Made by a program: the position numbers and the translations under genes
The notes under the pieces: generated by a model
Told to the model about the DNA's origin: nothing
The model's input: the letters and a program-made list of their open reading frames with translations, nothing else
Databases searched by the model: none
Shown: positions 1 to 18,982 of the stretch, one piece after another
Position numbering within the stretch: the first letter of the stretch is position 1
Layout of the letters: every line of letters starts with the position of its first letter
DNA from: Oscillospiraceae bacterium
GTDB lineage: Bacteria; Bacillota; Clostridia; Oscillospirales; CAG-272
Length of the DNA: 64,000 nt
Assembly: GCA_015064855.1 (NCBI GenBank)
Contig: SVRK01000001.1
Span: 14,196 to 78,195, forward strand
Direction of reading: 5' to 3'

Positions 1-1886
1 ATTCTTCTCTTCAAGCTTCCTATATAAACAGTTGGGAATTTGAAGACACTAACGGGAAAAAGATTGTCCAATATCTTGAAAAGTTCACTCATCCTTTGTT
101 TTACCGTGATTCCGATTTTGGAGTTCTTGTTTCCCCTGCATCAATTTTTAATTCCTATGAGGTGGCAGTTAACATCGGTTTACCCAAAAAATCTATAAAA
201 GGATTGCCTGTTTTTGAATCTGTATCGTTTGGTAGAGATGTTCATTACTTGGAGGCCGACCGTAATACAGCATCTGCCCTTTCACTCGGAAATATATTCC
301 ACATGGGTGAGGAAGACAAACAAACACCAGTTATGCTCGATGTAAAAAGCCTTGCAATGCACACTTTCGTAACGGGTTCCACGGGTTCAGGTAAATCTAA
401 TACGGTTTATCAAATACTGCGTGAATTAGATGGACAAGGGGTTAAGTTCCTTGTTGTCGAGCCCGCCAAAGGCGAATATAAACATATTTTTGGCAATGGA
501 ATTGCAAGTGTTTATGGAACAAACCCTGCTATTACTCCCATTTTGAAAATAAACCCGTTTAGGTTTCCAAAAGGCATTCACGTTTTAGAACACATAGACC
601 GATTGGTAGAAATATTTAATGTTTGTTGGCCCATGTATGCTGCGATGCCAGCAGTATTAAAAGATTCCGTCGAACGTGCTTACGTGTCTGCGGGTTGGGA
701 TCTCACAGATTCCAACAATCGCTATTCTGAAAGTCTGTTCCCAACATTTGTTGACGTGTTAGATGAACTGAATAATGTAATCTCGCAGTCTGCCTTTTCG
801 CAAGAAGTAAAGGATAATTACATAGGTGCCCTTTCAACGAGAATTAAATCATTGACCAATGGTATATATGGTAAAATCTTTGGGAACGACGAAATAGGTG
901 ATGAATCTCTCTTCGATAACAATGCTATTGTTGATTTGAGTCGTGTCGGTTCAGTAGAAACTAAGTCTCTGATAATGGGAATCTTGGTTATGAGACTTCA
1001 GGAATACAGAATGACATCAGGAAAAATGAATGCTGATTTGAAACACGTTACAGTGCTTGAAGAAGCTCATAATTTGCTCAAGCGTACTTCTACAGAACAA
1101 AGCAGCGAGTCCTCTAACCTGCTTGGAAAGTCGGTTGAAATGTTGGCAAACGCAATAGCAGAAGTAAGAACGTATGGAGAAGGTTTTATAATTGCCGATC
1201 AAGCTCCTGGATTGCTTGATTTGAGTGTTATTAGAAACACCAACACTAAGATCATTATGCGACTTCCCGAAGAAGAAGATCGGCAATTGGTCGGCAAGGC
1301 GGCAAATGTGTCAAATGAACAGATTGCGGAGCTTTCCAAACTTCCCACTGGTGTTGCAGCCATATACCAGAATAACTGGATAGAGCCCATACTTTGTCAG
1401 GTGACATACAAGGGTAATGACAATGTATGCTATAATTATTGTCCATCCCAGGGTACTACGATTGAGCATCATCAAAAACAGTCATTGATTAAGGCGCTGG
1501 TCCAGAAGCAAAGTGGCGAAAAAATGGAAATGACCATCGGTGAGCTTGTTAAGATGATTATTAACATGGCAATACCAACGTCAATTAAAATCCAAGCAAT
1601 TAGAGCTCTTAGCAAAAACGGAAGATGTTCTAAGACTGACATAGCTTCTGTGCTTTCCAAACTTGTCTTTACCGCAGAAACCGAGAAACTTTCTCAAGAG
1701 ACAGAATCGCTTGACGAATGGAAAGAAGAGATTGTTTATTCGATTGACTCACCGCTTGACTATCTCGCAGAGGATGATCAGAATCTTGTCATCGAATGCA
1801 TTTTAATCGACCTGATTGCGCAAAAAAGAAGACCACCCGAATACTTAGATCAGTGGCGCAAATACCTTGAAGGGACGGTGATATAA
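1..1886 (+). CDS. HerA/FtsK-like P-loop ATPase (DUF87-type), 5-prime end outside window
   Basis: The frame is open from base 3 up to the listed start at 96, so the gene is cut by the window edge. Walker A is HTFVTGSTGSGKSNTVYQILREL and Walker B is VTVLEEAHNLL. The stop overlaps the next start (TAATG, 1884-1888). Confidence 0.7.
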   Translation, partial: SSLQASYINSWEFEDTNGKKIVQYLEKFTHPLFYRDSDFGVLVSPASIFNSYEVAVNIGLPKKSIKGLPVFESVSFGRDVHYLEADRNTASALSLGNIFHMGEEDKQTPVMLDVKSLAMHTFVTGSTGSGKSNTVYQILRELDGQGVKFLVVEPAKGEYKHIFGNGIASVYGTNPAITPILKINPFRFPKGIHVLEHIDRLVEIFNVCWPMYAAMPAVLKDSVERAYVSAGWDLTDSNNRYSESLFPTFVDVLDELNNVISQSAFSQEVKDNYIGALSTRIKSLTNGIYGKIFGNDEIGDESLFDNNAIVDLSRVGSVETKSLIMGILVMRLQEYRMTSGKMNADLKHVTVLEEAHNLLKRTSTEQSSESSNLLGKSVEMLANAIAEVRTYGEGFIIADQAPGLLDLSVIRNTNTKIIMRLPEEEDRQLVGKAANVSNEQIAELSKLPTGVAAIYQNNWIEPILCQVTYKGNDNVCYNYCPSQGTTIEHHQKQSLIKALVQKQSGEKMEMTIGELVKMIINMAIPTSIKIQAIRALSKNGRCSKTDIASVLSKLVFTAETEKLSQETESLDEWKEEIVYSIDSPLDYLAEDDQNLVIECILIDLIAQKRRPPEYLDQWRKYLEGTVI

Positions 1887-2416
1887 TGAGCAATCCTATG
1901 GGAATTCACGAAACAAAGGAAATAGCTAAGAAAGTTACCGGAGAAGGTACTTCGACTAAGGCCTTTGAAAATACCGGGAAAACCGAAACGCCTCGAAGAG
2001 ATTTACATACAATTAACGAGCATTTGGAAGGAAAAACATACCCCGGTACTGATGTCAAATACGAACGGCAAAAGTTCACTGTTAATGGCGAAAAGGTTGA
2101 GGGAGTGTTTCCAAAATTTGAAAGCAAGTTCGATACTCGATTGCCGCGCGATATGTGGAACGCCTCAGACGATGCGCAGTTTAAGCAATGCACAAAGAAT
2201 TTAGCTCGACAAATTGAGGCAAACCCTGATATGGCATCGAAGTTCACCCCTCGACAATTAGAGCAAATAAAAAATGGTGAACCTCGCATCTCAGGTTTAA
2301 CCTGGCATCACAACGAAAGACCGGGAACAATGCAATTAGTAAATGCCGATACACATAGTACTTGTAGGCATACCGGAGGACGCTCTATATGGGGCGGTGG
2401 CTCCGATTGTAGATAA
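1886..2416 (+). CDS. Free-standing HNH/EndoVII-fold nuclease toxin of the WHH type
   Basis: C-terminal ISGLTWHHNERPGTMQLVNADTHSTCRHTGG matches the WHH toxin nuclease signature. The protein is only 176 aa with no delivery domain. Its ATG overlaps the upstream stop. Confidence 0.75.
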   Translation: MSNPMGIHETKEIAKKVTGEGTSTKAFENTGKTETPRRDLHTINEHLEGKTYPGTDVKYERQKFTVNGEKVEGVFPKFESKFDTRLPRDMWNASDDAQFKQCTKNLARQIEANPDMASKFTPRQLEQIKNGEPRISGLTWHHNERPGTMQLVNADTHSTCRHTGGRSIWGGGSDCR

Positions 2417-2426
2417 GGAGGTTTTT

Positions 2427-2822
2427 ATGAACAATTGGAAATATAAGATTGATATTCAATCTGCATCTGTATTTGATGAAATTGAAAAACAGTATAAAGT
2501 AAAATTTTCAAATGAACTCCGTGAGTTTATTGCCGAGAATAATGGCGCAACTCCGGAAAAGTATCATTTTATGATTGAAAACACCGAAAAGGTATTTGGG
2601 GCAGTCCTGTCTGTAAATCAAGGTGAGTCTGATGTGGATACGATTTACCCTGCGCTTTCTTGTATCGAGAATACAGAAATTGTTCCTTTTGCAATCGATC
2701 CGTTTGGAAACTATATTTGTTATTCCATCACTGATAAGACGGTTGTTTTTTGGGATCACGAGACAAGTGCGGTTTTCTCTTCTGGCAAAAGCCTTAGTGA
2801 ATTTATAGACTCGTTGTATTAA
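2427..2822 (+). CDS. SMI1/KNR4 (SUKH-1) family immunity protein
   Basis: The internal ATG at 2427 is preceded by AAGGAGG (2415-2421). The motif VPFAIDPFGNYICYSITDKTVVFWDHETS is typical of SUKH immunity proteins that follow polymorphic toxin nucleases. Confidence 0.7.
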   Translation: MNNWKYKIDIQSASVFDEIEKQYKVKFSNELREFIAENNGATPEKYHFMIENTEKVFGAVLSVNQGESDVDTIYPALSCIENTEIVPFAIDPFGNYICYSITDKTVVFWDHETSAVFSSGKSLSEFIDSLY

Positions 2823-2846
2823 ATATCTATGGCAGGAGGTAGTCTT

Positions 2847-2894
2847 ATGAAGGCTGCCTCTGTGCCCATTTATGCTATAGGAGATAACGAATGA
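2847..2894 (+). CDS. Candidate 15-codon upstream ORF (MKAASVPIYAIGDNE) coupled to the DUF262 gene
   Basis: AGGAGG at 2834-2839 lies 7 nt before the ATG at 2847. The TGA stop (2892-2894) overlaps the ATG of the next gene (2891-2893). There is no homology evidence. Confidence 0.25.
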   Translation: MKAASVPIYAIGDNE

Positions 2895-4603
2895 GTGAGA
2901 TAGAAGTAGGAATAAAGCTTGAGACAAAACTTGTAGGCTCCATCCAAGGAGACTTTTACATTCCCTCGTATCAAAGAGGATACCGTTGGGGCAAAGACGA
3001 AGTAACACGTCTTTTGGACGATATTTATTCAAACGGTAACAACAATTATTGCTTGCAACCTGTTGTCGTGAAAAGAGACGGCGAAAGATTTGAGTTGATT
3101 GACGGTCAACAGAGATTGACTACTCTTTTCATTTTGCTTCAGTATATCAAAAAGGAATTCAAACCGCGAATTGATTTGAAGTATAGCCTTACGTATGAAA
3201 CCCGCTTGAACTCTGCAACCTTTTTGCAGAACATAGATCCCGCATTGGCTAACGACAATATTGATTATTTTCATATTGCACAAGCTTACCAAACCATCGA
3301 TGAGTGGTTTAGAAAGCAAGACGATGATGTTGTTGCTGCGGACGATGTTTACGGCTATCTTGTAAAGCACGTTAAAATCATCTGGTATGAGGTTGGAGAA
3401 GAAGAGGATGCCATAGGACTATTTACACGTCTGAATATTGGTAAGATTCCGTTAACAAGCGCCGAGCTTGTAAAAGCGATGTTCTTGAGCCGCGATAATT
3501 CCAAGACGATGACTCGTGAAAAACAGGAAGAAATCGCGTTGCAGTGGGACAACATTGAAAAAGAGCTGCACAATAGTAGTTTTTGGGGCTTTTTGTCCGA
3601 TAAGGATTACCAAACAAGGATTGATTTAATTCTCGATCTTATAGCAAACAAGCCATCAAATAGCAAGGATAAGTATTTTACCTTCTTTTACTTTGATGGT
3701 CTAAGAGGTGATCTGGACGCAATATGGAAGAAGATTCAGCATACTTTTCTTATATTGAAAGATTGGTATGAGGATCACAATCTGTACCATCAGATTGGTT
3801 ATTTGATTGCTTCAAAGGATCCTAATTGGACGCTTCAAAGCATCTTTTCTGCCTCCGTTGGAAAGACCAAGACCAACTTTGCCAGTCTGCTCGACGATGC
3901 TATTGCGGACACTATCAAACTTAAGAACGGAAACTATGCCGATCTTAGCTATGAAAAGCCAAATGATTATGCCCGTATCAGCAGACTCTTGCTGCTTTAT
4001 AACGTAGAAACCGTTCGCAACATAGCTGGCAAGTCACAAAGGTTTCCTTTCGACCAGTTCAAGAGCACAAAGGGCGGAGCTTGGAGCTTAGAGCATATAC
4101 ATGCTCAACAATCCGAAGGTATGCAGAAACAAGAGCAGTGGAAAAAGTGGTTAGAATTGCACATTCCTTCTGTTGAATCGCTCCAAATTGATTCTGCAGA
4201 GCTGATTGCTCGCATGAAGGACGCCATCGCCAAAGAGAAACTCGAACGTACTGAATTTGAAGACATCCAAGATGCTGTTGTTGCAGTGTTGTCAGCCGAA
4301 GGAAACGTGGAATTTTTGCATTCCATTGCAAATTTGGCGCTGCTCAGAACAAGTGATAATGCAGCGCTTAACAACTCGACCTTTGACGTTAAGCGGAATG
4401 AAATAATTAAGATGGATAAGGCCGGTCAATATATTCCTTTCTGCACAAGGATGGTGTTCCTCAAATACTATACACCTTCTGCAGATAACCAGCTTCACTT
4501 CTGGGGGCAGGCAGATAGAGTTGCGTATGTTAACGATATCAATAGAGTTCTCGGCAAATATCTTGGCGACAATTTAATTTTGATTGAAAAGGAGGCTGAA
4601 TAA
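2891..4603 (+). CDS. GmrSD-like type IV restriction protein (N-terminal DUF262, C-terminal DUF1524 HNH-like nuclease)
   Basis: DUF262 motifs are YIPSYQRGYRWGKDEV and LIDGQQRLTTLFILLQY. DUF1524-type motifs are GAWSLEHIHAQQ and NLALLRTSDNAALNNSTFDVKRNEI. Confidence 0.8.
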   Translation: MSEIEVGIKLETKLVGSIQGDFYIPSYQRGYRWGKDEVTRLLDDIYSNGNNNYCLQPVVVKRDGERFELIDGQQRLTTLFILLQYIKKEFKPRIDLKYSLTYETRLNSATFLQNIDPALANDNIDYFHIAQAYQTIDEWFRKQDDDVVAADDVYGYLVKHVKIIWYEVGEEEDAIGLFTRLNIGKIPLTSAELVKAMFLSRDNSKTMTREKQEEIALQWDNIEKELHNSSFWGFLSDKDYQTRIDLILDLIANKPSNSKDKYFTFFYFDGLRGDLDAIWKKIQHTFLILKDWYEDHNLYHQIGYLIASKDPNWTLQSIFSASVGKTKTNFASLLDDAIADTIKLKNGNYADLSYEKPNDYARISRLLLLYNVETVRNIAGKSQRFPFDQFKSTKGGAWSLEHIHAQQSEGMQKQEQWKKWLELHIPSVESLQIDSAELIARMKDAIAKEKLERTEFEDIQDAVVAVLSAEGNVEFLHSIANLALLRTSDNAALNNSTFDVKRNEIIKMDKAGQYIPFCTRMVFLKYYTPSADNQLHFWGQADRVAYVNDINRVLGKYLGDNLILIEKEAE

Positions 4604-4605
4604 TA

Positions 4606-6849
4606 ATGAGCACTGCATTGCATACTTTTATGGATATCTTTACTGCTGATTTTGCAATCGATGAAGAAACTGTTGTTCAGCTTCGCAAAATTGTCATACC
4701 GATCATTCAGCGTGACTATGCGCAAGGGCGAACCGACTCGGACGTTCAGAGGGTTCGCAAACGTTTTCTTAATTCATTGCACAAGGCAATAACTGAAAGC
4801 AATATCACGCTTGACTTCGTGTACGGTGACATCGACAAAGATGGAGTAATGACTCCTCTTGATGGTCAGCAACGTCTTACAACGCTATTCCTTTTGCATT
4901 ATTATGCAGCAAAGAAAGAAGGCGTCGCAAAGGAAGACTATTCTTTCTTGATGAATTTCAGCTATGAAACGCGGTATAGCGCAAGAGATTTCTGCGAATA
5001 TCTGGTTGATCACCACGAACCAACATTCACCTGTGCTCTTTCTGAAGAAATTAAGGATCAGGCTTGGTTTCCTTTGGAATGGAAAAAGGATCCTACGATC
5101 AGTTCAATGCTCGTGATGCTTGATGCAATTGCAGATGTATTCAAAGATACGGATGGCATTTGGGAGAGATTAAAGGATGGCGCAATCTCGTTCTATTTCC
5201 TCCCCATCAAGGATATGGGGCTTACCGATGAGCTGTATATCAAGATGAACTCTCGTGGAAAGCCTTTAACTCAGTTTGAACACTTTAAGGCCGAACTTGA
5301 GCACGGACTCCGTGAAATCGATGAGAGCATATCAAAGCGTATTATGCGTAAGATCGATATTGATTGGACGGATATGCTTTGGCATTATAGAGGAACTGAT
5401 AACGTTATCGATGATGAATTTCTCAGATATTTCCGCTTTGTTTGTGATATTATTTGTTATCAAAGCGGTGGCACAACGCAAGGCAAGAGCAATGATGAAT
5501 TCGACCTCCAGAGAGAATATTTTTCAAAGGATACTGAGAATGTGGAGAACAACATCCTCAAACTCGAGAGTTTCTTTGATTGTTGGTGTAACCTTGGCGG
5601 CAAAACACCTACCGAGTTCATTTCTCAGTTCATTTCGTATGATCACGAGCCCGGCAAGATTAAAATCGAAAAAAGGTACGCCCTTGATATATTCGAGGAT
5701 TGTATGAGAACCTATGCAGACGTATCCGGAAACGGAAACAGAAGCTTCCCGTTGAATAGAATTATCCTCTTGTTCGCCATTGTAACCTATCTGCAGAACA
5801 AGGACACTGTAACCGAGGATGAGTTTGCACGTCGCTTGAGGATTGTTAATAACCTCATACAGAATTCCGAAGACGAGATCAGTGATAGTGAGCACAGAAC
5901 CAGTGGTAACAGAATGCCCGCAATTCTTAAGCAGGTTGAGATTTTGATACTTACAGGTACCATTGATACAAGCATCGAAAAATCTTTGAATACCTTCCAG
6001 CTTCAAGAGGAAGTTGAGAAAATAGATTGGGTAATTGCAAATCCTCAGTTCGCCGAGACACTGTACGAGCTTGAAGACCATGAGCTGCTCCAGGGCCAAA
6101 TTGCTATAATTGGATTGGAACATCCAGAGTATTTCCCGCGCTTTGCTGATTTGTTTAAGTGCAAACGAGATCTTATCGATTGTGCTATGATGAGTTTTGG
6201 CAATTACGCGCAGCAAGAAAAGGGCTGGAGACATCAGCTTGGTTCAAGTAACACCAATGCAAAACCGTGGAGAACACTATTCCATAAGAGTTCTAACAAG
6301 GGATTTGACGTTACCAAAGCCATTCTTGCACAGATTCTTGATGTATCAAGCCCTATTACAGATGATTTTCTTCGCGCTTGCGCCGATAAGTACGTAGCAG
6401 ACTGCGAGGTAGCTTCCACATTTGATATCAGATACTACTACATCAAGTATTCTTTGTTCCGCCCTGGTTATTACGGCAAGTACACGTGGGAAAGTCTCCA
6501 GGACAAACCTTACGATCTCGCTGTAATGATTACCGAAACGAAGTGGTCTGAAAATACATACCAACCGTTCCTTAAGGCGGTGGATGATAAGCGTATCTCT
6601 CGCGAGCATTGTGGTCAGAGAATTATTTTCGATGACAGATATCTCAAGTGCGAAAACAATGCTTACGTTGTACGTCTTACAGCAAATGACGCAGAGATAT
6701 ACAGACTTTTAATTTCCCAAAATGAGTCTGGAGTAGACGTTGAAGACCGTATCATAAAGCTTAGAGCAGTATATCAGGATATTTTGTCGCAGCAGTTAGC
6801 TCCGATTCCCGTAGTTTCCGATGATGAATCGGAGGACGGAAATGAGTGA
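4606..6849 (+). CDS. Second DUF262 (ParB-like NTPase/nuclease fold) protein with a large uncharacterised C-terminal region
   Basis: Motifs IPIIQRDYAQGR, PLDGQQRLTTLFLLHYY and YIKMNSRGKPLTQFEHFKAEL. It starts 2 nt after the previous stop. I recognised no DUF1524 motif. Confidence 0.7.
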   Translation: MSTALHTFMDIFTADFAIDEETVVQLRKIVIPIIQRDYAQGRTDSDVQRVRKRFLNSLHKAITESNITLDFVYGDIDKDGVMTPLDGQQRLTTLFLLHYYAAKKEGVAKEDYSFLMNFSYETRYSARDFCEYLVDHHEPTFTCALSEEIKDQAWFPLEWKKDPTISSMLVMLDAIADVFKDTDGIWERLKDGAISFYFLPIKDMGLTDELYIKMNSRGKPLTQFEHFKAELEHGLREIDESISKRIMRKIDIDWTDMLWHYRGTDNVIDDEFLRYFRFVCDIICYQSGGTTQGKSNDEFDLQREYFSKDTENVENNILKLESFFDCWCNLGGKTPTEFISQFISYDHEPGKIKIEKRYALDIFEDCMRTYADVSGNGNRSFPLNRIILLFAIVTYLQNKDTVTEDEFARRLRIVNNLIQNSEDEISDSEHRTSGNRMPAILKQVEILILTGTIDTSIEKSLNTFQLQEEVEKIDWVIANPQFAETLYELEDHELLQGQIAIIGLEHPEYFPRFADLFKCKRDLIDCAMMSFGNYAQQEKGWRHQLGSSNTNAKPWRTLFHKSSNKGFDVTKAILAQILDVSSPITDDFLRACADKYVADCEVASTFDIRYYYIKYSLFRPGYYGKYTWESLQDKPYDLAVMITETKWSENTYQPFLKAVDDKRISREHCGQRIIFDDRYLKCENNAYVVRLTANDAEIYRLLISQNESGVDVEDRIIKLRAVYQDILSQQLAPIPVVSDDESEDGNE

Positions 6850-7027
6850 TACGCAAATTGAATGGGAAAAGCTCACTCCCGAAGAAAAGAAGAAGCAGCT
6901 TTTTCTGAAGCAAAAACAAACGCTTGACACGTTCCTCTCACGGAATGCAATCAGTCAAGTGCAATACGATAAAAGTCTTGGAGATCTCATTGAAAAAATG
7001 GGGATGCAAGATGTTTTTAACGGATAG
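6842..7027 (+). CDS. Small hypothetical protein (61 aa)
   Basis: The ATG at 6842 is preceded by GGAGGA (6831-6836) and overlaps the upstream stop. A terminator hairpin follows. Confidence 0.4.
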   Translation: MSDTQIEWEKLTPEEKKKQLFLKQKQTLDTFLSRNAISQVQYDKSLGDLIEKMGMQDVFNG

Positions 7028-7032
7028 AAAAA

Positions 7033-7060
7033 ACGGGATGCCGCCTCTGCGACATCCCGT
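7033..7060. terminator. Hairpin terminator between convergent genes
   Basis: ACGGGATG (7033-7040) pairs with CATCCCGT (7053-7060). There is a T-run on the minus-strand side and a weaker one on the plus side. Confidence 0.6.
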
Positions 7061-7066
7061 CTTTCA

Positions 7067-7774
7067 TTATTCAGCTACAACACCAATAACACGACCACAG
7101 CAGAAAATGCTGTCGTCTGCCTTCAAAGAAATGGGTTTGTATTTTTCGTTGTGAGAAATCAGCTTGCCATTGCCAAGCTCTTTGACGTATGCATCACCGT
7201 TAATGATGAAAATGCCGATATCACCAACATCGATGGCATCCTGCTTGCACACGTAGATTTTATCACCATCGTGGAAGGTAGGCTCCATACTGTCTCCGCT
7301 GACACTCAGAACGAAGTCGGCCTCTTCAGCTTCAGCGCACTCAGGAACAAAGATGTCGATGGCTTCCTCGCTGTCAAGGAAGGTTCCTGTTCCGGCTGAA
7401 GCAGGCATTGTGTAGTAATCGAGTCTGATAACGCGAGCCTTCTTCTTTTGCGCAGCAGCACAAACAATTTCGTACTCTGTATTGAGAACGTTATTCACTA
7501 CCGTTCTTCCGCGATCGTCCAGAGCACGATACTTATGAATTACACTGATCTCGCTGGTAGAGTAGGCATCGCTTTGGAAACCAAGCAAGGCATCCGGTGT
7601 TACGCCTAAAACGTGGCAGATGGCAGATAGGCGTTCGCAATCGGGTTTAGCTACACCCATTTCCCACGAGGAAACAACACTCGCACTTTTTGCGCCGATC
7701 AGTTTGGCAAACTCACCTTGCGTAAGGTTTTTATTGGCTCTTGCCGCCTTTATTCTTTCTCCAATTTGTTTCAT
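7067..7774 (-). CDS. CI/LexA-like repressor (XRE HTH plus S24 self-cleaving peptidase domain)
   Basis: N-terminal HTH is LTQGEFAKLIGAKSASVVSSWEMG. The S24 motif VLSVSGDSMEPTFHDGDKIYV and the downstream AYVKEL supply the Ser/Lys dyad. Confidence 0.85.
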   Translation of the reverse strand: MKQIGERIKAARANKNLTQGEFAKLIGAKSASVVSSWEMGVAKPDCERLSAICHVLGVTPDALLGFQSDAYSTSEISVIHKYRALDDRGRTVVNNVLNTEYEIVCAAAQKKKARVIRLDYYTMPASAGTGTFLDSEEAIDIFVPECAEAEEADFVLSVSGDSMEPTFHDGDKIYVCKQDAIDVGDIGIFIINGDAYVKELGNGKLISHNEKYKPISLKADDSIFCCGRVIGVVAE

Positions 7775-7804
7775 AGTAGTAAGCCTCCGCTGTTCATTGG
7801 TTAT

Positions 7805-7923
7805 ATTTTATCATATTTAGAATGGAATGTCAAGATAAAATTCCAATTAAAATGTAATTTTGCTGTTGACATTCAAATTAAAATGTAGTATAATATACTC
7901 GTTTCCAATGAAAATGTAATTTT
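7805..7923. promoter_or_regulatory. Divergent promoter region with three 21-bp operator-like repeats
   Basis: Plus promoter: TTGACA (7866-7871), 17 nt, TATAAT (7889-7894). Minus promoter: TTGACA (complement of 7828-7833), 17 nt, TAAAAT (complement of 7805-7810). The repeat TTCMAATKAAAATGTARTWTW occurs at 7841-7861, 7872-7892 and 7903-7923, exactly 31 bp apart; the middle copy fills the plus-promoter spacer. Confidence 0.7.
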
Positions 7924-7941
7924 AAGCAATAAGGAGGCAAA

Positions 7942-9180
7942 ATGTGTCGCACCATTCTGCATTGTGATATGAATAACTTCTACGCATCCGTCGAATGTTT
8001 CAAGAATCCGAAGTTAAAACCGTATCCTGTTGCAGTATGCGGTGAAGTCGAAGAGCGTCACGGAATCGTACTTGCTAAAAACTATAAGGCGAAAGCGTAT
8101 GGCGTTGCAACCGGAGAAGCAATATGGCAGGCGAAGCAAAAATGCCCGGACTTAGTAATTGTGCCTCCGCATTACGACGAGTATATGTCCTTCTCAAAGG
8201 CGGCGCGTGAGATCTACGAGCATTATACCGATCAAGTGGAACCATTCGGTATGGATGAATGCTGGCTTGATTGCACCGGCTCCACAGGAATTATGGGAAG
8301 CGGCGAAAAGATAGCCAACGAAATACGAGAACGCATCAAATTTGAACTGGGGTTAACCATTTCTGCGGGTGTTTCGTTCAATAAAATCTTTGCCAAGCTG
8401 GGCAGCGATATGAAGAAGCCCGATGCAGTAACCGTGATTCCCGAGGATCGCTTCAAGGAAATGATATGGCATCTTCCTGCTTCTGAAATGCTCGGGGTTG
8501 GTAGAGCCACAGAAAAGAAACTGTCGTCATGTGGCATCAGAACGATTGGAGACATTGCAAACTGGCCTGTAGACTTCTTCACACGAAGGCTCGGAAAATG
8601 TGGAACGGATCTGTGGCGTTTTGCAAATGGATTGGATAATAGCCAAGTAATGACTAGGGATACCGAAGTGCCGGAAAAGACGGTAGGACACGGCATCACC
8701 ACACTTCAAGACCTTGAAAGTCCCGCTGAAGTATGGAAAGTAATGCTCGCTCTTTCGCAAGATATTGGGCACCGTCTTTATCTCTTCAATCGGAAAGCGA
8801 CCGGAATTGCCATCGACGTAAGAGACAACCAGCTCTATTTCAAACAATGGCAAAGGAGTATTTCGCTACCCACACAGAGCCCTTCTTGGATAGCAAAAGA
8901 AGCATTTGCTCTGTTTTGTGAAAGGTACGATTGGAAACACCCCATCAGATCGATCACAGTCAGAGCAATCGGGCTTACGTCTATGGATACACCCTCACAG
9001 TTATCTGTCTTTGTAGACGCGGAAAGAATCGCAAGGAGCGAGAAACTTGATGCTTGTATAGAGGATATCCGACGTCGTTATGGAAAAGCGAGTATTATTA
9101 ACGCTTGTCTCTTGGATAATCCAAAGATGCCACAGCATCACGAAAATAAAGTCATAATGCCGACAGGCATACCGATATAG
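7942..9180 (+). CDS. Y-family translesion DNA polymerase (UmuC/ImpB/DinB-like)
   Basis: Motifs ILHCDMNNFYASVECF and SAGVSFNKIFAKLGSDMKKPD. It is divergent from the S24 repressor, as in SOS-type cassettes of mobile elements. Confidence 0.9.
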   Translation: MCRTILHCDMNNFYASVECFKNPKLKPYPVAVCGEVEERHGIVLAKNYKAKAYGVATGEAIWQAKQKCPDLVIVPPHYDEYMSFSKAAREIYEHYTDQVEPFGMDECWLDCTGSTGIMGSGEKIANEIRERIKFELGLTISAGVSFNKIFAKLGSDMKKPDAVTVIPEDRFKEMIWHLPASEMLGVGRATEKKLSSCGIRTIGDIANWPVDFFTRRLGKCGTDLWRFANGLDNSQVMTRDTEVPEKTVGHGITTLQDLESPAEVWKVMLALSQDIGHRLYLFNRKATGIAIDVRDNQLYFKQWQRSISLPTQSPSWIAKEAFALFCERYDWKHPIRSITVRAIGLTSMDTPSQLSVFVDAERIARSEKLDACIEDIRRRYGKASIINACLLDNPKMPQHHENKVIMPTGIPI

Positions 9181-9190
9181 GAGGATGAGT

Positions 9191-9445
9191 ATGGAGTACA
9201 GAAAAGAATACGTTACCGTAAAGCTCAGGGTAGATCCCGATGGTTCGATACGTCCATTGAGCTTTGTTTGGGTGGACGGGATACAGTATAAGATTGACAG
9301 ACTGATTCAGCGAACTCGCGCAGCTTCAACCAAGGTAGGCGGACGTGGCATGAGATATACGATCCGCGCCGATGGCAAGGAAACCTATCTGTTTGAGGAA
9401 GACGGCAGATGGTTTATGGAAGTTCCAATAATAAATAATCCGTGA
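9191..9445 (+). CDS. Hypothetical protein downstream of the polymerase
   Basis: AGGAGG at 9179-9184 lies 6 nt before the ATG at 9191. The listed start at 9185 is too close to the SD. Confidence 0.5.
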   Translation: MEYRKEYVTVKLRVDPDGSIRPLSFVWVDGIQYKIDRLIQRTRAASTKVGGRGMRYTIRADGKETYLFEEDGRWFMEVPIINNP

Positions 9446-11920: not shown

Positions 11921-13792
11921 ATGAGCTTAGCAATCAACAACTTATTTAACTTTGGTAGGAGCCTCCCTGCGCCTTTTGATTCTCTTGGAAGCAAGAAGGT
12001 CAAGGTTACGTCTATGTATGGCGAAGGCACCGAATCAACCCTCTGCGCAACCGTTATCAAGGCGATTCACGCAATCTGTCATTGTATGGACGGTAGCGGA
12101 GACGGCGCGGTAGGTGTTCTCGACAAGAAGACGGTTGCCGAATACAAATCCTCGGCAGGACCGAATCAGTATCATCTCGTAGTATACGACAGCACCAATG
12201 GACAGGTACTCGCAAGCGTATATGACAAGGATACGGAGGTAATGGAAACCTATACCGCAAACCCATCCGCAAGAGACGGTTCAGCCATTATGATGGCACT
12301 CTTTCCCGTCCTTATGAACGACAAGGAATTCAGCGATAAATTCGACGAGTATTTCAAGGAATACAGCGCGGGATATCCTGATATGAATCACGCAAAAGAG
12401 TGCATGGCATATATGTGTGACAACGCATACCGCCGTGTTAAAAACGAAACCATTCCTCAGCATATCAAGGTCGAGATTGAAAGATCCGGCAATCTGATGC
12501 GTATTTCCCCTTCGCATATTGACTCCGGAACGTTTACACCAAAGGATGTCATTGCGGGAGAGTTTTCAATCTTTGCCAGTGTCGGAGCCGCTACCGTTAT
12601 TGGAAGCGCTTCAGTCATTGTTGAGCACTCGGATTTCGAAGGACAGTATGTGCTTCAGCCGAGAACCTTCAATCCAGTAGAACAGTCCCTTATCCCCAAG
12701 CTTCCTTCTTGGTATATCATTCCGCAGGAGGTGGTGGATATTTGCAAACACGCTAAGGCAACCACAGGCAAGCCCACACAAATGCGCAACTTCCTTCTGA
12801 GAGGTCCCGCAGGCACGGGTAAGACAATGGGTGCTAAAGCGATTGCAGCCGGACTTGGTTTGCCTTATATGAAGTATACCTGCTCGGCGGGAACAGAGAT
12901 CTTCGATTTCATCGGTCAGGTCTTTCCCAACACAGACGGATTCTCTTCAAGTAATCCTCAGATTGCAAGCGAACGCGAAATGCTCAAGGCAATGGGTGGA
13001 ATCAATTATGCAAACGTAGCTAAGCTTATGTCCCTTCCTGATCTTGATGATATGGATTATGATCCTGCAGGTGTTTATCACCGCCTTACGGGAATCGAGA
13101 AGCCGACAGCATCCTCCCAGGATTGTATGGCGGTCGTTCTTGATATTGTAACCGCAAAGGTGCAGGAACTCTCGAAGAGCGACGAAAGCGCTACGGAAAA
13201 AGGACAGTCGTTTAGATACGTAGAAACCGATTTCATCAATGCACTCCGCAATGGTTTCGTTGTTGAAATTCAGGAACCCACCACTATCGTTCAGCCGGGT
13301 GTTATGGTTGGCCTTAACTCCCTCCTTGAACAGGATGGCTCAATCACGCTCCCTACCGGAGAGATCATTAAGCGTCATCCCGATGCTGTTGTCGTTGTAA
13401 CTACTAACGTCAGCTACGAGGGGTGCCGAGGAATGAACCAGTCTATTATCGACAGAATGAGTCTGGTACGTGACGTAGAGCTTCCCGAACCCGAGGTGAT
13501 GGTACAGAGAGCGATGAGCGTTACCGGAGCTACCGATGAGCTGATGGTTTCCGATATGGTAAAGGTCGTAAACGATATGGCTGATTACTGCAGAAAGAAC
13601 AGCATCACCGACGGTTCTGTTGGTATGCGTAGTTTAATCGACTGGATTGTAAGTACAGAGATCACGGGAGACGTTTATTCCTCTGCTTTGCAAACTATTG
13701 TTAGCAAAGCAACGGCTGATGAGGATGACCGTGAGGCTCTTATTGCTACGGTCCTTGAGCCGATCTTTGCAAGAGGTCGCAAAAAGAAATAA
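11921..13792 (+). CDS. MoxR/CbbQ-like AAA+ ATPase with a roughly 270-aa unknown N-terminal region
   Basis: Walker A is FLLRGPAGTGKTMGAKAIA, Walker B-like is GFVVEIQEPT, and AVVVVTTN is present. It is paired with a downstream VWA protein. Confidence 0.75.
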   Translation: MSLAINNLFNFGRSLPAPFDSLGSKKVKVTSMYGEGTESTLCATVIKAIHAICHCMDGSGDGAVGVLDKKTVAEYKSSAGPNQYHLVVYDSTNGQVLASVYDKDTEVMETYTANPSARDGSAIMMALFPVLMNDKEFSDKFDEYFKEYSAGYPDMNHAKECMAYMCDNAYRRVKNETIPQHIKVEIERSGNLMRISPSHIDSGTFTPKDVIAGEFSIFASVGAATVIGSASVIVEHSDFEGQYVLQPRTFNPVEQSLIPKLPSWYIIPQEVVDICKHAKATTGKPTQMRNFLLRGPAGTGKTMGAKAIAAGLGLPYMKYTCSAGTEIFDFIGQVFPNTDGFSSSNPQIASEREMLKAMGGINYANVAKLMSLPDLDDMDYDPAGVYHRLTGIEKPTASSQDCMAVVLDIVTAKVQELSKSDESATEKGQSFRYVETDFINALRNGFVVEIQEPTTIVQPGVMVGLNSLLEQDGSITLPTGEIIKRHPDAVVVVTTNVSYEGCRGMNQSIIDRMSLVRDVELPEPEVMVQRAMSVTGATDELMVSDMVKVVNDMADYCRKNSITDGSVGMRSLIDWIVSTEITGDVYSSALQTIVSKATADEDDREALIATVLEPIFARGRKKK

Positions 13793-13819: not shown

Positions 13820-16096
13820 ATGGCAAGGGTGAATCACAAATTAGTTAAGCAGCGTCTAAACGAAAAACGCAGCAAAATAACCGACCGACAGTTCTTTTCT
13901 TCAAGGCTTCTTGCAGGCCATTTTGAGGATATGGCGGCGGCGCAGACAAGACGGTATAAGTATAACCGTCGCATTCACGTGCAGCTTTTTTGGAAGCCAA
14001 AGGAAGATTTTGTGGCCGCTACAAACAACGAGTACATCCGAATCAACTCCGGTAACAAGATGGTAACGACCGTAAAAGGACGTGAAAATCGGTACTGGAT
14101 CGTATGCGGACTGTTTGCTCATGAAGCCGGGCACGTACTTTATACCGACTTCCTTGCGCAGCAAAGCTACTGCAACTACTTCTTGAGAAAGAAGTGGTAT
14201 CCTTTGGCACCTCCCCTCACCACCCTCGATCAGAAGATAGCTGAGCGTGAGATCTGGGATTACGTTGATGACGATCCCAGAAACGCTGAGGTCCTTCTGC
14301 AGGTAGCAATGACGATTAACAACGTAATTGAGGACGGTTACATTGAGAATCGTGTTCTTAACGCATTCCCGGGTTCGCTCGGGTATGCGCTTGAGACCTT
14401 GCGCGAAAAGCACTTCTGTGATATGCCGACAGTAACGGAGCTTATCGAGCAGGAAAACGATGGCGAATGTCATATTTTCCAGAGCATTATGCAGCTTATG
14501 CTTTCTTACGCAAAGTTCGGTGAAATCAAGTATGGTGAAGAACCTCTCAGCGACGAGAGAATTCAGACCGTATTCAGCCTGATTGGAGATATCGATTCGG
14601 CTCTATTCAATCGTTCTGGCAAGGAAAGGTTAATGGCGACCAATGCGGTTCTTATCAAATGCTGGAAGTACGTTAAGGATTTCTGCGAATATAGCAAACA
14701 AAAGCAGGATGAAGCTGCCGCAAACGGTTCCACAATGAGTATTTCCGAGAAGCTTGCCGAACTGTTCGGTAAGATGATTGGTGGCTCTGCAGGTGCTTCC
14801 GGAAGCGGAAGCCCTGTTCCCGAAGCATCCGGTGTTCCTATTCCTTCCGCAACAGCAGCAAATCGTTCCAAAACCAAGAATGATGCAGGCGAAAAAGCAG
14901 ACGAAGAGGAATCTGGATCCGGCGCAGCAGGGGCAGAAACACCCGAAGAGGCACCTTCAGGCGAGTCTGGAGAAAAATCTTCAAATTCATCTGAGTCTGG
15001 AGAGGAATCAGGCGGACAGGATGGTGACGAAGGCGATGGTGGCAAGGATGATGTAACATCGTCTGAAGGCAAACGAATTCCGTATCACCAGACCGAGAGT
15101 GTTGAAACCAGCGGCAGCGGAAAAATGGAGCGAAACGATACCTATGAGCGCGAAATGTACGACAAAGCCGCAAGTGATATCGAGAGAGTTCTTGAGAGGA
15201 TGGCAGAAAAAGCCGCTTGTCAGGAGCTTGAAAACGAAAGACTTCGCGAGCTGAACGAGGTTGCGCAGAACATATCTTATGGCGATGTACATCAAGGGAT
15301 AGACATCTGTGTGAATCGAATCAACGACGTAGATACCGAGCTAATAGATCAGTACAATTACATTGCAGCTCCTCTTCTGACCATTTCCAGACAGTTGCAG
15401 CGCAGTCTTGTGCGGCAGCTTAAGGAAAGCAGACGCGGAGGAAAGCAAACCGGTCTTATGATGGGTAGACGCTTGGATTCACATGCGTTGCATAGAAACG
15501 ATGGGAAGATCTTTTATAAGAACGCCCTTCCGAACGAAATCCCCGAGCTGTGTGTTGGTCTTCTGATTGACGAATCCGGTTCTATGGGGTGTAGCGACAG
15601 ATGCACCTATGCGAGAGCTGCAGCAATCATTCTTTATGACTTCTGCAGGAGCCTTGAGATACCTGTTATGGTATACGGCCATTCAACGTCAGGCGGTGAG
15701 GTCGAGCTGTTTTCTTATGCAGAATTCGAAAGCTACGACAATGATGACAAATATCGCATGATGGACATTGGAGCCAGAGGCAGTAACCGTGACGGTGCCG
15801 CACTTCGATTCGTTGCAGAACAAGTATCAAAGCGCCCAGAGGAGATAAAGCTTCTCATATTGATTTCTGACGGTCAGCCCGCGCATTACGGTTATTCCGG
15901 TACTGCTGCAGAGGAAGATTTGAGAGGAATCAGAAAAGAATATATGAAAAAAGGAATCCTCTTTATCGCGGCTGCTATTGGAGACGATAAGCAGAATATC
16001 GAGCGAATTTATGAGGACTCGTTCCTTGACATAACAGATCTCAATCAGTTGCCCGTAAAGCTTACCGCAGTTGTTAAGCGTCATATTCGGGTATAA
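13820..16096 (+). CDS. CobT-like protein: N-terminal HExxH (zincin-like) region, acidic disordered linker, C-terminal VWA domain
   Basis: HEAGH is encoded at 14120-14134. The Ser/Gly/Glu-rich linker is encoded at about 14790-15070. The MIDAS-like motif is GLLIDESGSMG, and LLILISDGQPA is also present. Confidence 0.75.
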   Translation: MARVNHKLVKQRLNEKRSKITDRQFFSSRLLAGHFEDMAAAQTRRYKYNRRIHVQLFWKPKEDFVAATNNEYIRINSGNKMVTTVKGRENRYWIVCGLFAHEAGHVLYTDFLAQQSYCNYFLRKKWYPLAPPLTTLDQKIAEREIWDYVDDDPRNAEVLLQVAMTINNVIEDGYIENRVLNAFPGSLGYALETLREKHFCDMPTVTELIEQENDGECHIFQSIMQLMLSYAKFGEIKYGEEPLSDERIQTVFSLIGDIDSALFNRSGKERLMATNAVLIKCWKYVKDFCEYSKQKQDEAAANGSTMSISEKLAELFGKMIGGSAGASGSGSPVPEASGVPIPSATAANRSKTKNDAGEKADEEESGSGAAGAETPEEAPSGESGEKSSNSSESGEESGGQDGDEGDGGKDDVTSSEGKRIPYHQTESVETSGSGKMERNDTYEREMYDKAASDIERVLERMAEKAACQELENERLRELNEVAQNISYGDVHQGIDICVNRINDVDTELIDQYNYIAAPLLTISRQLQRSLVRQLKESRRGGKQTGLMMGRRLDSHALHRNDGKIFYKNALPNEIPELCVGLLIDESGSMGCSDRCTYARAAAIILYDFCRSLEIPVMVYGHSTSGGEVELFSYAEFESYDNDDKYRMMDIGARGSNRDGAALRFVAEQVSKRPEEIKLLILISDGQPAHYGYSGTAAEEDLRGIRKEYMKKGILFIAAAIGDDKQNIERIYEDSFLDITDLNQLPVKLTAVVKRHIRV

Positions 16097-18064: not shown

Positions 18065-18982
18065 ATGGATAGAAAACTTACAAGCATCGTATCCTATCCC
18101 GAGAGAGGCGAAGGCGGTAACAACCGTTACCGTGGCAATTGCTCTCCCAAGCTTATTGAGGATCTCATCGGTTTCTTCAGACCGACTGAGATTTGCGACT
18201 ATATGTGCGGCAGTGGGACGACCAAGGCTGCTGCAGATAAATGCGGTATCCAAAGTAAGCTCTACGACCTGCACAGCGGGTTCGATATAATGAATAGCGA
18301 CATCAAAGAGCGACCGGAATTCATATTCTGGCATCCTCCATACTGGGATATCATCGTTTATTCGGACGTTATGTATAAGGCATCTGAAGTTCAGAGTCAG
18401 TATGGGTACGATCCGCGCAAGCTGGATCTCTCCAGAATTCCAAGCTGGGAGAAGTTTGTTGAAGCAATGAATTACGCGATGATGAAGCAGTTCAGCTCCC
18501 TTGAAAAAGGAGGTCGTATGGCAGTCCTGATGGGCGATATCAAGAAACGTGGCAAGCTCTACAGTATGCTTTCTGAGATTGTAAAGCCGGGAACGCTTGA
18601 GAACATTATCATCAAAGCGCAGCACAATTGCTTCTCGGATAACACTCAGTACAGTGGCAAATTCATTCCAATACTTCACGAGTATGTGATGATTGTCCGT
18701 AAGGATTCGCCCCTTCTTGTTCCGGTTATCGTTGCAAAAGAGATGCAGGTTGATACAAGGGATATGGCAGGAGCTACGTGGAGAGATGTGGTTGCCGCAG
18801 TCCTTGAGGAGTGCTCCGAAGCTGTAACGCTTACATATCTCTATGAGCAGATAGAGTCTCATAAGAAAGCCAAGGCAAATAAACACTGGCGTGAGAAGAT
18901 CCGTCAGACTTTGCAAATCAATCCAAATCATTTCGCCCACACCGACCGTGGTATGTGGGTGCTCAGAAGAAAGGAAGCGTAA
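18065..18982 (+). CDS. Putative orphan DNA methyltransferase (motif I then motif IV, gamma-like order)
   Basis: The AdoMet motif is CDYMCGSGTTKAAA. About 40 aa later comes FIFWHPPYWDII, an xPPY catalytic motif with an unusual His. No restriction enzyme partner is seen. Confidence 0.55.
   Translation: MDRKLTSIVSYPERGEGGNNRYRGNCSPKLIEDLIGFFRPTEICDYMCGSGTTKAAADKCGIQSKLYDLHSGFDIMNSDIKERPEFIFWHPPYWDIIVYSDVMYKASEVQSQYGYDPRKLDLSRIPSWEKFVEAMNYAMMKQFSSLEKGGRMAVLMGDIKKRGKLYSMLSEIVKPGTLENIIIKAQHNCFSDNTQYSGKFIPILHEYVMIVRKDSPLLVPVIVAKEMQVDTRDMAGATWRDVVAAVLEECSEAVTLTYLYEQIESHKKAKANKHWREKIRQTLQINPNHFAHTDRGMWVLRRKEA

Follow-up and report, generated by a model that had tools for sequence, protein, structure and literature searches.

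The first 2,822 nucleotides (nt) of a 64,000-nt stretch of DNA from an Oscillospiraceae bacterium (GenBank assembly GCA_015064855.1, contig SVRK01000001.1, positions 14,196 to 78,195; this whole stretch is called the window below) carry the 3' part of a gene for a large ATPase, followed by the genes for a predicted WHH/Colicin-DNase nuclease toxin and a SUKH immunity protein. These three genes are, very probably, the 3' effector end of a system of roughly seven to nine genes and about 9-12 kb. The order of this system is a WYL regulator, two to three dynamin-like GTPases, a tail-anchored protein, usually a small open reading frame (ORF), an ATPase of ~1050 amino acid residues (aa), a toxin of roughly 170-350 aa and an immunity protein of roughly 90-150 aa. 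The cluster is a polymorphic toxin-immunity system together with partner machinery for which no description was found. The toxins are modular and consist of a leader of 40-50 aa and one of several interchangeable toxin domains. The C-terminal tail of the ATPase, the toxin leader and the toxin-immunity pair are each exchanged as units by recombination, and variation in the tail goes with variation in the leader irrespective of the ATPase core. The anatomy of the cluster and this modular coupling are jointly considered to be well supported.

The window begins inside the ATPase gene, the start of which lies upstream. A search of 5.8 billion proteins, which returned at least 8000 matches, found a protein of 1067 aa (P0001) that is 100% identical to the window ATPase, and a 22-kb contig of the Joint Genome Institute (locus L001) carries the same locus in full. 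The genes on this contig are, in order, an HTH_17 protein, a regulator with WYL and WCX domains, two dynamin-like GTPases, a 154-aa protein, a 73-aa protein, the ATPase, the WHH toxin, the SUKH protein and two GmrSD proteins. The regulator has 322 aa; its WYL and WCX domains are confirmed by Pfam, and it matches the WYL model of PADLOC with an E-value of 1.6e-28. The dynamin-like GTPases have 336 and 767 aa, both contain the Dynamin_N domain (Pfam, E about 1e-17) and their P-loops are intact. The 154-aa protein ends in a C-terminal transmembrane helix. Small ORFs of 56-126 aa are found at the position just before the ATPase in several related loci, seven of which are detected by tblastn. A preliminary description of the window, made from the sequence alone, had given the ATPase as longer than 596 aa and had placed any upstream partner genes outside the window. 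The reading frame is real, the full protein has 1067 aa, of which the window holds 627, and the upstream genes were found on L001 when the sequence was extended. That description had also proposed a three-part module of ATPase, nuclease and inhibitor. The coupling of these three is conserved, but the module is larger than three parts, since the regulator, the dynamins and the small proteins belong to it.

For the comparison of related loci, one genome per species was scanned with an alignment of the ATPase family, and 80 loci were retained for analysis. At least 575 of the 600 pattern matches listed encode a relative of the ATPase. The loci occur in Lachnospiraceae, Oscillospiraceae, Clostridia, Paenibacillus, Bacillus, Brachyspira and Treponema, and further in Campylobacter, Wolinella, Synergistaceae, Leptotrichia and Haemophilus. 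The linkage of the ATPase with the toxin and immunity genes, the lack of which the preliminary description had named among the observations that would refute it, is conserved across the phyla Bacillota, Spirochaetota, Campylobacterota, Synergistota, Fusobacteriota and Pseudomonadota. Simple ORF calling gives a near-uniform layout: two to three large GTPase genes and one to two small ORFs are followed by an ATPase of 1010-1150 aa, then by a gene of 140-350 aa and a gene of 90-150 aa. The gene directly after the ATPase (position +1) is a same-strand ORF of toxin size in 79 of 81 loci, L001 included. It starts within ~20 nt of the ATPase stop codon in nearly all of the 80 loci, often with an overlap of 1 or 4 nt if over-extended start calls are allowed for, and the second gene (position +2) is close behind. 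Such regularity of the ATPase-toxin-immunity order goes far beyond what chance would give.

The genes upstream of the ATPase are also retained. An iterated hidden Markov model (HMM) for the dynamin GTPase domain was run over the 1587 ORFs of the loci and recognised 157 of them, 155 of which are in the block upstream of the ATPase. Upstream sequence of 8 kb or more is available for 55 loci; of these, 52 contain one or more dynamin-like ORFs, 51 contain two or more and 17 contain three or more. A WYL-like gene is present in 33 of the 55, and a tail-anchored small ORF likewise in 33. A second layout, which at first seemed different, has a WYL regulator, three dynamin-like GTPases, a β-helix protein and an unknown protein. 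The cluster also occurs on plasmids, and its boundaries are borne out by well-annotated copies there and in Lachnoanaerobaculum. Plasmid pF27B of Lactococcus cremoris carries, in its annotation, a WYL protein, two proteins of the 'dynamin family', two hypothetical proteins, an 'ATP-binding protein', an 'HNH endonuclease' and a hypothetical protein. A plasmid of Escherichia coli TW10590 carries two dynamins, a hypothetical protein, an ATP-binding protein, an HNH/ENDO VII nuclease and an SMI1/KNR4 protein, and is the sole copy among 5426 complete E. coli genomes. A megablast search of window positions 1-7000 against plasmid and phage collections gave no match, and such copies have to be sought at the protein level with tblastn. 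Only 12 loci were found among 2.9 million viral contigs. The members of the ATPase family are almost all 1010-1200 aa in length, and their N-terminal half marks a distinct family, with at least 562 clusters (50% identity, E <= 1e-30), or 1254 at E <= 1e-10.

The window proteins were read from their ORFs and compared with the gathering scores of Pfam, and the domain calls of all three are above the curated cut-offs. The toxin matches PF12639 (Colicin-DNase) over residues 68-164 with an E-value of 9.3e-26 and 90.9 bits versus a cut-off of 25, and PF14414 (WHH) with an E-value of 2.5e-12 and 46.8 bits versus 25.1. Its nearest solved relative is the C-terminal domain of an Rhs toxin (PDB code 8bd1), with which the segments LTWHHNE and HTGGRS are aligned. 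The immunity protein matches PF09346 (SMI1_KNR4; E 6.1e-15, 56.4 bits versus 25.4) and PF14568 (E 2.5e-14). In the related loci, Pfam analysis of 77 proteins at position +1 gave Colicin-DNase/WHH in 35, Endonuclease_NS_2 in 12, LHH in 12, GH-E in one and HNH in two, the rest having single families or none. Almost all of the effectors that could be assigned with Pfam are predicted DNases (63 of 77), and the toxin repertoire is, as far as the domain matches tell, dominated by DNase folds. Three small toxin classes gave hints below threshold, to PD-(D/E)xK or NERD nucleases, to HNH just below the cut-off and to a metallopeptidase-like fold, respectively; one class without a Pfam family may be PoNe-like. 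At position +2 (64 proteins), SUKH was found in 29, DUF6985 in 10, YezG-like in three, PoNi in two and SUFU in one. The immunity protein changes with the toxin domain in the loci that were examined closely, among them a trio from Brachyspira. In one locus, L066, a second toxin-immunity pair is located at 8263-9385. It is related to the metallopeptidase-like toxin and immunity protein of locus L076, and it may be an orphan cassette and may represent a non-nuclease class.

The preliminary description had taken the 176-aa window protein to be essentially a nuclease domain only; this does not hold, since approximately the first 65 residues are occupied by a leader and linker, conserved in the closest loci, all of which have WHH toxins. 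Over the whole set, N-terminal motifs are common to toxins with different C-terminal domains. HMMs were built from the first ~45 residues of single toxin classes and searched over the same 1587 ORFs. All matches of the leader models are at the N-termini of ORFs that occupy the toxin position, which is +2 in the case of one shifted locus. With Endonuclease_NS_2 toxins as the training set, the leader model matches WHH, LHH and HNH toxins with E-values from 2e-20 to 8e-4. One leader trained on WHH toxins matches the toxins of the unassigned class C3, which have only faint PD-(D/E)xK/NERD hints, and another matches three further classes with E-values down to 1.7e-10. The leaders have no Pfam match and no hydrophobic N-terminus.

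The leader type of the window is found with WHH domains only, but with very different ATPases. In their N-terminal region the ATPases of loci L012, L015 and L018 are only 26-32% identical to the window protein, and their cores are 63-69% identical to it; these loci still share the tail of the window ATPase (101-106 bits), the full-length toxin (56-58% identical) and the immunity protein. Closer ATPases (core 70-79%) that are accompanied by other leaders have tails that give only 25-68 bits. Over 1540 locus pairs, the partial Mantel correlation of tail with leader, given the core, is r = 0.20, a value that was reached by 0 of 500 permutations. Among pairs of low core similarity, those with similar leaders have a median tail score of 101-144 bits, versus 17-21 for the rest.

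The exchange of modules can be followed directly in the three Brachyspira loci L032, L033 and L052. Residues 1-900 of their ATPases are 91-98% identical, while the last 140 aa are only 51-69% identical. Loci L032 and L033 share the leader and differ in the toxin domain and the immunity protein, and L033 retains the first residues of the displaced toxin domain. Between L033 and L052, it is the toxin domain (74%) and the immunity protein (95%) that are shared, and the leaders that differ. No fusion of the ATPase with a nuclease, which would have pointed to an intracellular effector, was found in 270 family proteins, the longest of which have bigger helical tails or N-terminal extensions; the toxin is therefore always a separate, releasable polypeptide.

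The ATPase itself matches PF01935 (the DUF87/HerA central domain) with an E-value of 2.5e-13 and 51.1 bits versus a cut-off of 23.2, and it has weaker Pfam matches to the P-loop families FtsK, TrwB and T2SSE. In 24 family members, residues G565, T567, G568, G570, K571 and S572 of the Walker A motif are invariant and S566 and S569 are nearly so; in the Walker B region, L792, E793, E794, A795 and H796 are invariant and V791 is nearly so. Sequence comparison with solved structures gives HerA proteins, several of which come from anti-phage complexes, and archaeal HerA as the nearest relatives, in each case by a local match only. The best matches in the PDB (9x1l, 4d2i, 8yho, 8wiv, 9c1m and 8xau) cover parts of the ATPase domain only. 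The HerA models of PADLOC match with E-values down to 7.5e-20, whereas the HerA equivalog models of NCBIfam give 34.7-54.6 bits versus cut-offs of 800-970. The NCBIfam models for VirB4_plasma (35.8 versus 590) and TraC (16.9 versus 567) are also far below their cut-offs, as is CedD.

Models were calculated with AlphaFold2 (AF2), with a mean predicted local distance difference test (pLDDT) score of 64 for the N-terminal half and 67.5 for the full-length protein. The N-terminal α/β domain (residues 10-230 and 382-486) is modelled with confidence. It is interrupted by an insert, residues 230-381, which appears as a very long Ser/Thr-rich β-hairpin of low confidence (pLDDT 21-35). The Gly/Ala-rich tip of this insert, residues 281-330, is the only strongly hydrophobic stretch of the ATPase, and the protein is probably membrane-associated through it. 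The P-loop domain comes next and is followed by the tail, residues 924-1067, which is all-helical and modelled with confidence (pLDDT 82-89). In a Foldseek comparison with the PDB, the top match of the N-terminal half is TrwK/VirB4 of the R388 type IV secretion system (T4SS) (7o42_A, E 2.4e-3, probability 1.0), and that of the full-length model is again TrwK/VirB4 (8rtd_O, E 7.5e-10, 1060 columns). These alignments have template modelling (TM) scores of 0.25-0.36 and ~10% identity, on a model of moderate confidence. Matches confined to the ATPase domain are HerA (4d2i, E 1e-9), DndH, the HerA of SIR2-HerA, the VirB4 C-terminal domain and TrwB. For the N-terminal domain, Foldseek revealed no HAS barrel and gave the VirB4 N-terminal domain as the match instead. 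The ATPase thus appears to be HerA-like at the level of the clade and more VirB4-like in its architecture. The likeness to VirB4 is kept as a lead and not as membership because the TM-scores are low. The preliminary description, in which the protein was called a HerA/FtsK-like ATPase, was right about the P-loop clade (PF01935); the length of 1067 aa, the equivalog scores and the N-terminal domain do not agree with a classical HerA.

These features allow us to propose a function, tentatively. The leading reading is that the cluster may be a polymorphic DNase toxin system whose toxins are exported against competing bacteria. The ATPase tail would dock the toxin via its leader, and the SUKH protein would block the WHH DNase in the cytoplasm of the producer. 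The hydrophobic insert and the dynamin-like proteins would hold the ATPase at the membrane, where the ATPase, driven by ATP, would detach the immunity protein and transfer the toxin into the membrane or through it. The ATPase would be the substrate selector, as EssC is in type VIIb secretion, and the dynamins would supply membrane remodelling, for example the formation or fusion of vesicles. A categorically new protein-delivery pathway is a more speculative form of this proposal; it has a real chance, and we consider it on the whole unlikely. In such a pathway, a VirB4-like hexameric ATPase would pick leader-bearing DNases via its variable C-terminal domain, and the dynamins would aid membrane fission or fusion, by toxin-loaded vesicles or transient cell-cell fusion, for example.

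Export is favoured because swapping of the kind known from polymorphic toxins takes place between congeneric species, because the immunity families are common to toxins of the type VI and type VII secretion systems (T6SS and T7SS), and because the toxin is always a separate polypeptide. It is also favoured by the fact that an ATPase of secretion type has, like EssC, a variable domain on its substrate side, and by the membrane insert on a VirB4-like N-terminal domain. Immunity proteins of the SUKH, YezG and PoNi families also serve toxins delivered by T6SS and T7SS. The swapping of toxin and immunity genes fits interbacterial antagonism at least as well as it fits the release of an inhibitor on foreign DNA.

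A number of observations weigh against export. The toxins have no receptor-binding or translocation domain for entry into a target cell, no signal peptides were found, and none of the components has a predicted extracellular location. Monoderms and diderms (the latter being E. coli, Haemophilus, Campylobacter, Brachyspira and Treponema) share one core gene set, with no outer-membrane component, and a dedicated secretion machine is awkward for this reason. Interbacterial systems usually also carry RNases, NADases and toxins that target the wall or the membrane, whereas the set of effectors here is almost exclusively one of DNases. Downstream arrays of orphan toxin-immunity genes, which are common at the loci of polymorphic toxins, are rare here, with one clear case in the 80 loci, L066. 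The co-variation of tail and leader could partly be hitch-hiking in one recombination tract, because the two are adjacent in the DNA. The insert is modelled with low confidence; a pore-type amphipathic transmembrane β-hairpin was considered for it and rejected, its β hydrophobic moment being no higher than that of the globular parts. One face of the insert is composed of Ser, Thr, Asn and Gly and the other is mixed or charged; since the amphipathic β signal is unclear, no pore is claimed. Finally, both WYL regulators and pairs of dynamins, the latter in Eleos, have been described in anti-phage systems (Millman et al. 2022).

The last point leads to the main alternative, which is possible and in our estimate somewhat doubtful: an intracellular system against phages or mobile DNA, acting by abortive infection or by degradation of DNA at the membrane. 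The WYL protein would de-repress the operon on infection or DNA damage, and the dynamins would sense or repair the membrane at the site of phage entry, as Eleos or DynA. A hexameric HerA/VirB4-like ATPase would engage the DNA, and the DNase docked at its tail would be freed from its immunity protein and would degrade the DNA. This is the model of the preliminary description, enlarged by the dynamins. It agrees with the WYL+WCX regulator, with the HerA proteins of anti-phage complexes as the closest solved sequence relatives, and with a gene set that is identical in monoderms and diderms. Near-exclusive DNase effectors would suit a partner that is a DNA translocase. Eleos, a two-gene dynamin system, was shown experimentally to defend against jumbo phages (Millman et al. 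2022). Neighbours of defence type are found as well: a GmrSD-like pair in the window, an abortive infection (Abi) gene ~7 kb from the cluster on L. cremoris pF27B, and RelB/YoeB in Lachnoanaerobaculum. However, the swaps of leader, toxin and immunity protein between congeneric species are a signature of polymorphic toxins under selection for kin discrimination, and a membrane-inserting ATPase with a VirB4-like N-terminal domain would be unnecessary for the degradation of DNA in the cytoplasm. To our knowledge, the known HerA-effector and NTPase-effector defence systems have no dedicated immunity protein of the SUKH, YezG or PoNi type. The dynamins match the LeoA and LeoBC models weakly and partially (23-51 bits), and the PADLOC system models cover neither the toxin, the immunity protein nor the small proteins. 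The scarcity of the cluster on viral contigs and the heterogeneity of 120 sampled flanking genes, with no obvious enrichment of defence genes, also speak against defence.

Two other explanations concern the relation of the toxin genes to the ATPase. It is very improbable that the toxin-immunity pair is cargo of a mobile element and that the ATPase belongs, as its VirB4 or coupling protein, to the end of a conjugative T4SS module, although TrwK/VirB4 is the top match in Foldseek and there are weak Pfam and NCBIfam matches to models of TrwB, TraG, TraC, TraD and VirB4. The cluster of Butyrivibrio (L100) is ~6 kb from genes of an integrative and conjugative element (ICE), and two of the plasmids that bear the system are conjugative. 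On the other hand, all NCBIfam scores for T4SS proteins are far under their cut-offs, as the VirB4_plasma score illustrates, and the cluster is also found among housekeeping genes with no transfer genes nearby. The upstream genes encode dynamin-like GTPases, small membrane proteins and a WYL protein, and not VirB3, VirB6, VirB8, VirD4 or a relaxase; conjugation genes, which the preliminary description had envisaged upstream as a finding against its model, are not among the genes of the cluster. Least credible of all is a self-standing toxin-immunity addiction cassette beside an unrelated ATPase, which that description had kept as the simpler alternative. The SUKH gene does have a strong ribosome-binding site of its own, and WHH/SUKH pairs occur in many other genomic contexts (Zhang et al. 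2011). This explanation is contradicted by the order and the tight junction, which are kept in about 80 loci while the toxin and immunity families change, and by the leader models, which match only ORFs in the toxin position, together with the co-variation of the ATPase tail with the leader.

The coordinates of the features are collected in Table 1. The ATPase and toxin genes are joined by a stop/start overlap, TAATG, in which the toxin start codon (1886-1888) uses the final A of the ATPase stop codon TAA (1884-1886). The SUKH gene follows after a spacer of 10 nt. Both junctions had been read in this way in the preliminary description, including the ribosome-binding site AAGGAGG of the SUKH gene, and both were confirmed on the sequence. 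A longer ORF of 159 aa, 2343-2822, was rejected as an over-extension, the real start being the ATG at 2427 behind the ribosome-binding site. An RNA hairpin follows in the spacer before the first GmrSD-like gene. No terminator was called there in the consensus scan and a clear U-tract is absent; the hairpin may be the 3' boundary of the operon, since related loci finish at the immunity gene, or may serve as the end or stabiliser of a transcript.

Table 1. Positions of the genes, motifs and domains discussed in the text
Feature	Sequence	Position	Strand	Basis
ATPase gene, 3' part (C-terminal 627 codons, residues 441-1067 of 1067)	window	3-1886	+	frame 3 open from base 3; identity with P0001
Walker A motif GSTGSGKS (residues 565-572)	window	375-398	+	read from sequence
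Walker B region VLEEAH (residues 791-796)	window	1053-1070	+	read from sequence
All-helical tail at the ATPase C-terminus (residues 924-1067), where the toxin leader is proposed to dock	window	1452-1883	+	AF2 model; co-variation with leader
TAATG stop/start overlap of ATPase and toxin genes	window	1884-1888	+	read from sequence; tight junction recurs in related loci
Toxin gene (176 aa), stop codon TAA 2414-2416	window	1886-2416	+	Pfam PF12639, PF14414
Toxin leader and linker (about residues 1-65)	window	1886-2080	+	conservation in closest loci
Predicted WHH/Colicin-DNase nuclease domain of the HNH superfamily (residues 68-171)	window	2087-2398	+	Pfam; alignment with Rhs toxin 8bd1
Ribosome-binding site AAGGAGG of the immunity gene, overlapping the toxin stop codon	window	2415-2421	+	read from sequence
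SUKH-1 (SMI1/KNR4) immunity gene (131 aa), ATG 2427, TAA 2820-2822	window	2427-2822	+	Pfam
RNA hairpin, within the 68-nt spacer that precedes the first GmrSD-like gene	window	2827-2880	+	fold -25.2 kcal/mol, z = -2.75
GmrSD_N proteins (570 aa and 747 aa)	window	2891-4603, 4606-6849	+	Pfam
Cys-rich ORF (73 aa), ending 1 nt before the ATPase ATG	L001	9778-9999

The two GmrSD_N genes directly adjoin the cluster in the window. The first protein also has a weak match to GmrSD_C and matches the HEC-06, Orf5 and SspE models of PADLOC. This pair recurs in none of the 80 related loci and looks like a separate unit of modification-dependent restriction type, outside the system. The context had been described at the outset as a defence island. 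The GmrSD pair does adjoin the cluster here, but this is specific to the locus, and the flanks elsewhere are heterogeneous and often of housekeeping type. Pfam analysis of 120 flanking proteins gave 160 families, with housekeeping functions common and no clear enrichment of defence genes, as counted with no background control. In Lachnoanaerobaculum the cluster is located between the RelB/YoeB pair and genes for arginine biosynthesis. The most frequent flanking family is that of zinc-ribbon-domain proteins (5 of 120), which occur just upstream of the WYL gene in several loci, for example at 1-1481 of L085 (L. cremoris pF27B) and at 2714-3568 of L101; they may be an accessory component.

Further downstream in the window, an HTH_3 and Peptidase_S24 (LexA/CI-like) repressor gene (7067-7774, minus strand) is divergent from a gene for a Y-family polymerase with IMS and IMS_C domains (7942-9180, plus strand). 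Mutagenesis cassettes of the SOS type, like the one at 7067-9180, often ride on mobile elements. A MoxR-like AAA_5 ATPase of 623 aa (11921-13792, plus strand) is followed by a vWA/CobT_C protein of 758 aa (13820-16096, plus strand), and a similar pair of AAA and DUF2201 proteins is present just upstream of the cluster in Butyrivibrio L100 (1721-4649). The AAA_5/vWA pair may be a further conflict system or a neighbour that recurs. An N6_N4 DNA methylase-like protein (18065-18982, plus strand) and a RecD2-type helicase (23333-25585, plus strand) are also encoded, and no tRNA genes were found in the 64-kb window. In the Gemella locus L099, the first dynamin-like gene (3847-7113) is called as 1088 aa, with precomputed Pfam matches to the surface-adhesin domains Sgo0707_N1/N2, SHIRT and CLIPPER beside Dynamin_N. 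This dynamin/adhesin product could be a real fusion or an artefact of the gene call or annotation.

PADLOC 2.0 has no model for the cluster as a system. No description of it was found in the literature, in which subscription journals were largely outside the coverage, so a prior account is possible. The cluster is not covered in a study of the lactococcal plasmidome, and the reference papers on SUKH proteins and polymorphic toxins do not contain the word 'dynamin' (Zhang et al. 2011; Zhang et al. 2012). A 2026 report on ICE cluster 44 of Pseudolactococcus laudensis (PMC13335696) mentions 'dynamins LeoABC and a toxin-antitoxin system' together on the element. This may be an unrecognised instance of the cluster that was split into two annotations by defence-finder tools, and if this is true, some of the 'Eleos' calls in databases could be parts of a larger system.

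Bacterial dynamin-like proteins are widespread and their cellular jobs are mostly obscure, and the operon linkage described here makes their function testable. If the toxins are exported, the cluster would be a new route of toxin delivery that is common in anaerobes of the gut, the mouth and the rumen, in monoderms and diderms; it is also present on plasmids of dairy Lactococcus and on a plasmid of enterotoxigenic E. coli. If the reading as a new pathway is true, a large class of bacterial dynamins would have a defined role in the cell for the first time. If the system acts inside the cell, it would be a new multi-component defence, in which nucleases of toxin grade are under the control of immunity proteins and which links dynamins of the Eleos type to effector complexes of the HerA type. 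On either reading, the co-variation of tail and leader is a simple rule that predicts which toxin is paired with which machine.

It is useful to compare the cluster with known systems. Membership of the type VIIb secretion systems (T7SSb), the T4SS, Eleos and the HerA-NurA/SIR2-HerA systems was considered and rejected, since the features that define these systems are missing. The closest likeness in manner of working is to T7SSb with EssC and the LXG toxins. In both, the C-terminal region of an ATPase that is membrane-associated and of the FtsK/HerA superfamily varies with the toxin-immunity genes downstream; the toxins combine a conserved N-terminal part for targeting with exchangeable nucleases at the C-terminus; and immunity proteins of the SUKH and YezG families are held in common. 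The differences are that the ATPase described here has one P-loop domain instead of three, no FHA domains and a VirB4-like N-terminal domain, and that WXG100, EssA, EssB and EsaA are absent from the annotated loci. The leader has ~45 aa, whereas the LXG domain has roughly 200 aa. In addition, the cluster is found in diderms as well and always with dynamin-like GTPases.

The systems SIR2-HerA, DUF4297-HerA and HerA-NurA share with the cluster the P-loop clade and the pairing of the ATPase with a neighbouring nuclease gene. Unlike them, the cluster has no adjacent NurA, SIR2 or DUF4297, and its nuclease is of the toxin type, with an immunity protein and a swappable leader; the VirB4-like N-terminal domain, the membrane segment and the obligatory dynamins are further differences. 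Eleos has two consecutive genes for dynamin-like GTPases and is found in variable genome regions and on plasmids (Millman et al. 2022), as in the present case. However, Eleos is a two-gene system, while here the dynamins always precede the ATPase, the toxin and the immunity protein. The short dynamin of the window system matches LeoA with an E-value of 2.4e-8 and 31.5 bits over positions 103-223 of the 559 of the model, and the 767-aa dynamin is unmatched. This long dynamin and three homologues (from Bacillus, E. coli and Campylobacter) match neither LeoA nor LeoBC; two other homologues, from Lactococcus and Lachnospiraceae, match LeoBC weakly.

Among solved proteins, only VirB4/TrwK can be aligned over the N-terminal α/β domain as well as the C-terminal ATPase domain of the window protein. 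It differs in that no other T4SS gene accompanies the ATPase here, which also has two further elements, a large insert, rich in Ser and Thr and hydrophobic at its tip, and a C-terminal helical tail. With respect to the polymorphic toxin systems of CdiA, Rhs, LXG, MafB and S8-PTS, the toxins described here are very small and have no repeats, known trafficking domain or signal peptide. Genes of the type V secretion system (T5SS), T6SS or T7SS were not found in the annotated loci (L001, Lachnoanaerobaculum and the plasmid copies), and a combination of dynamins, a VirB4/HerA-like ATPase and a WYL regulator is not among the modes of trafficking listed for such toxins (Zhang et al. 2012; Li et al. 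2022). The general plan of the polymorphic toxins is retained in both, namely a constant N-terminus, a variable toxin domain, an adjacent immunity gene and displacement by recombination (Zhang et al. 2012; Li et al. 2022).

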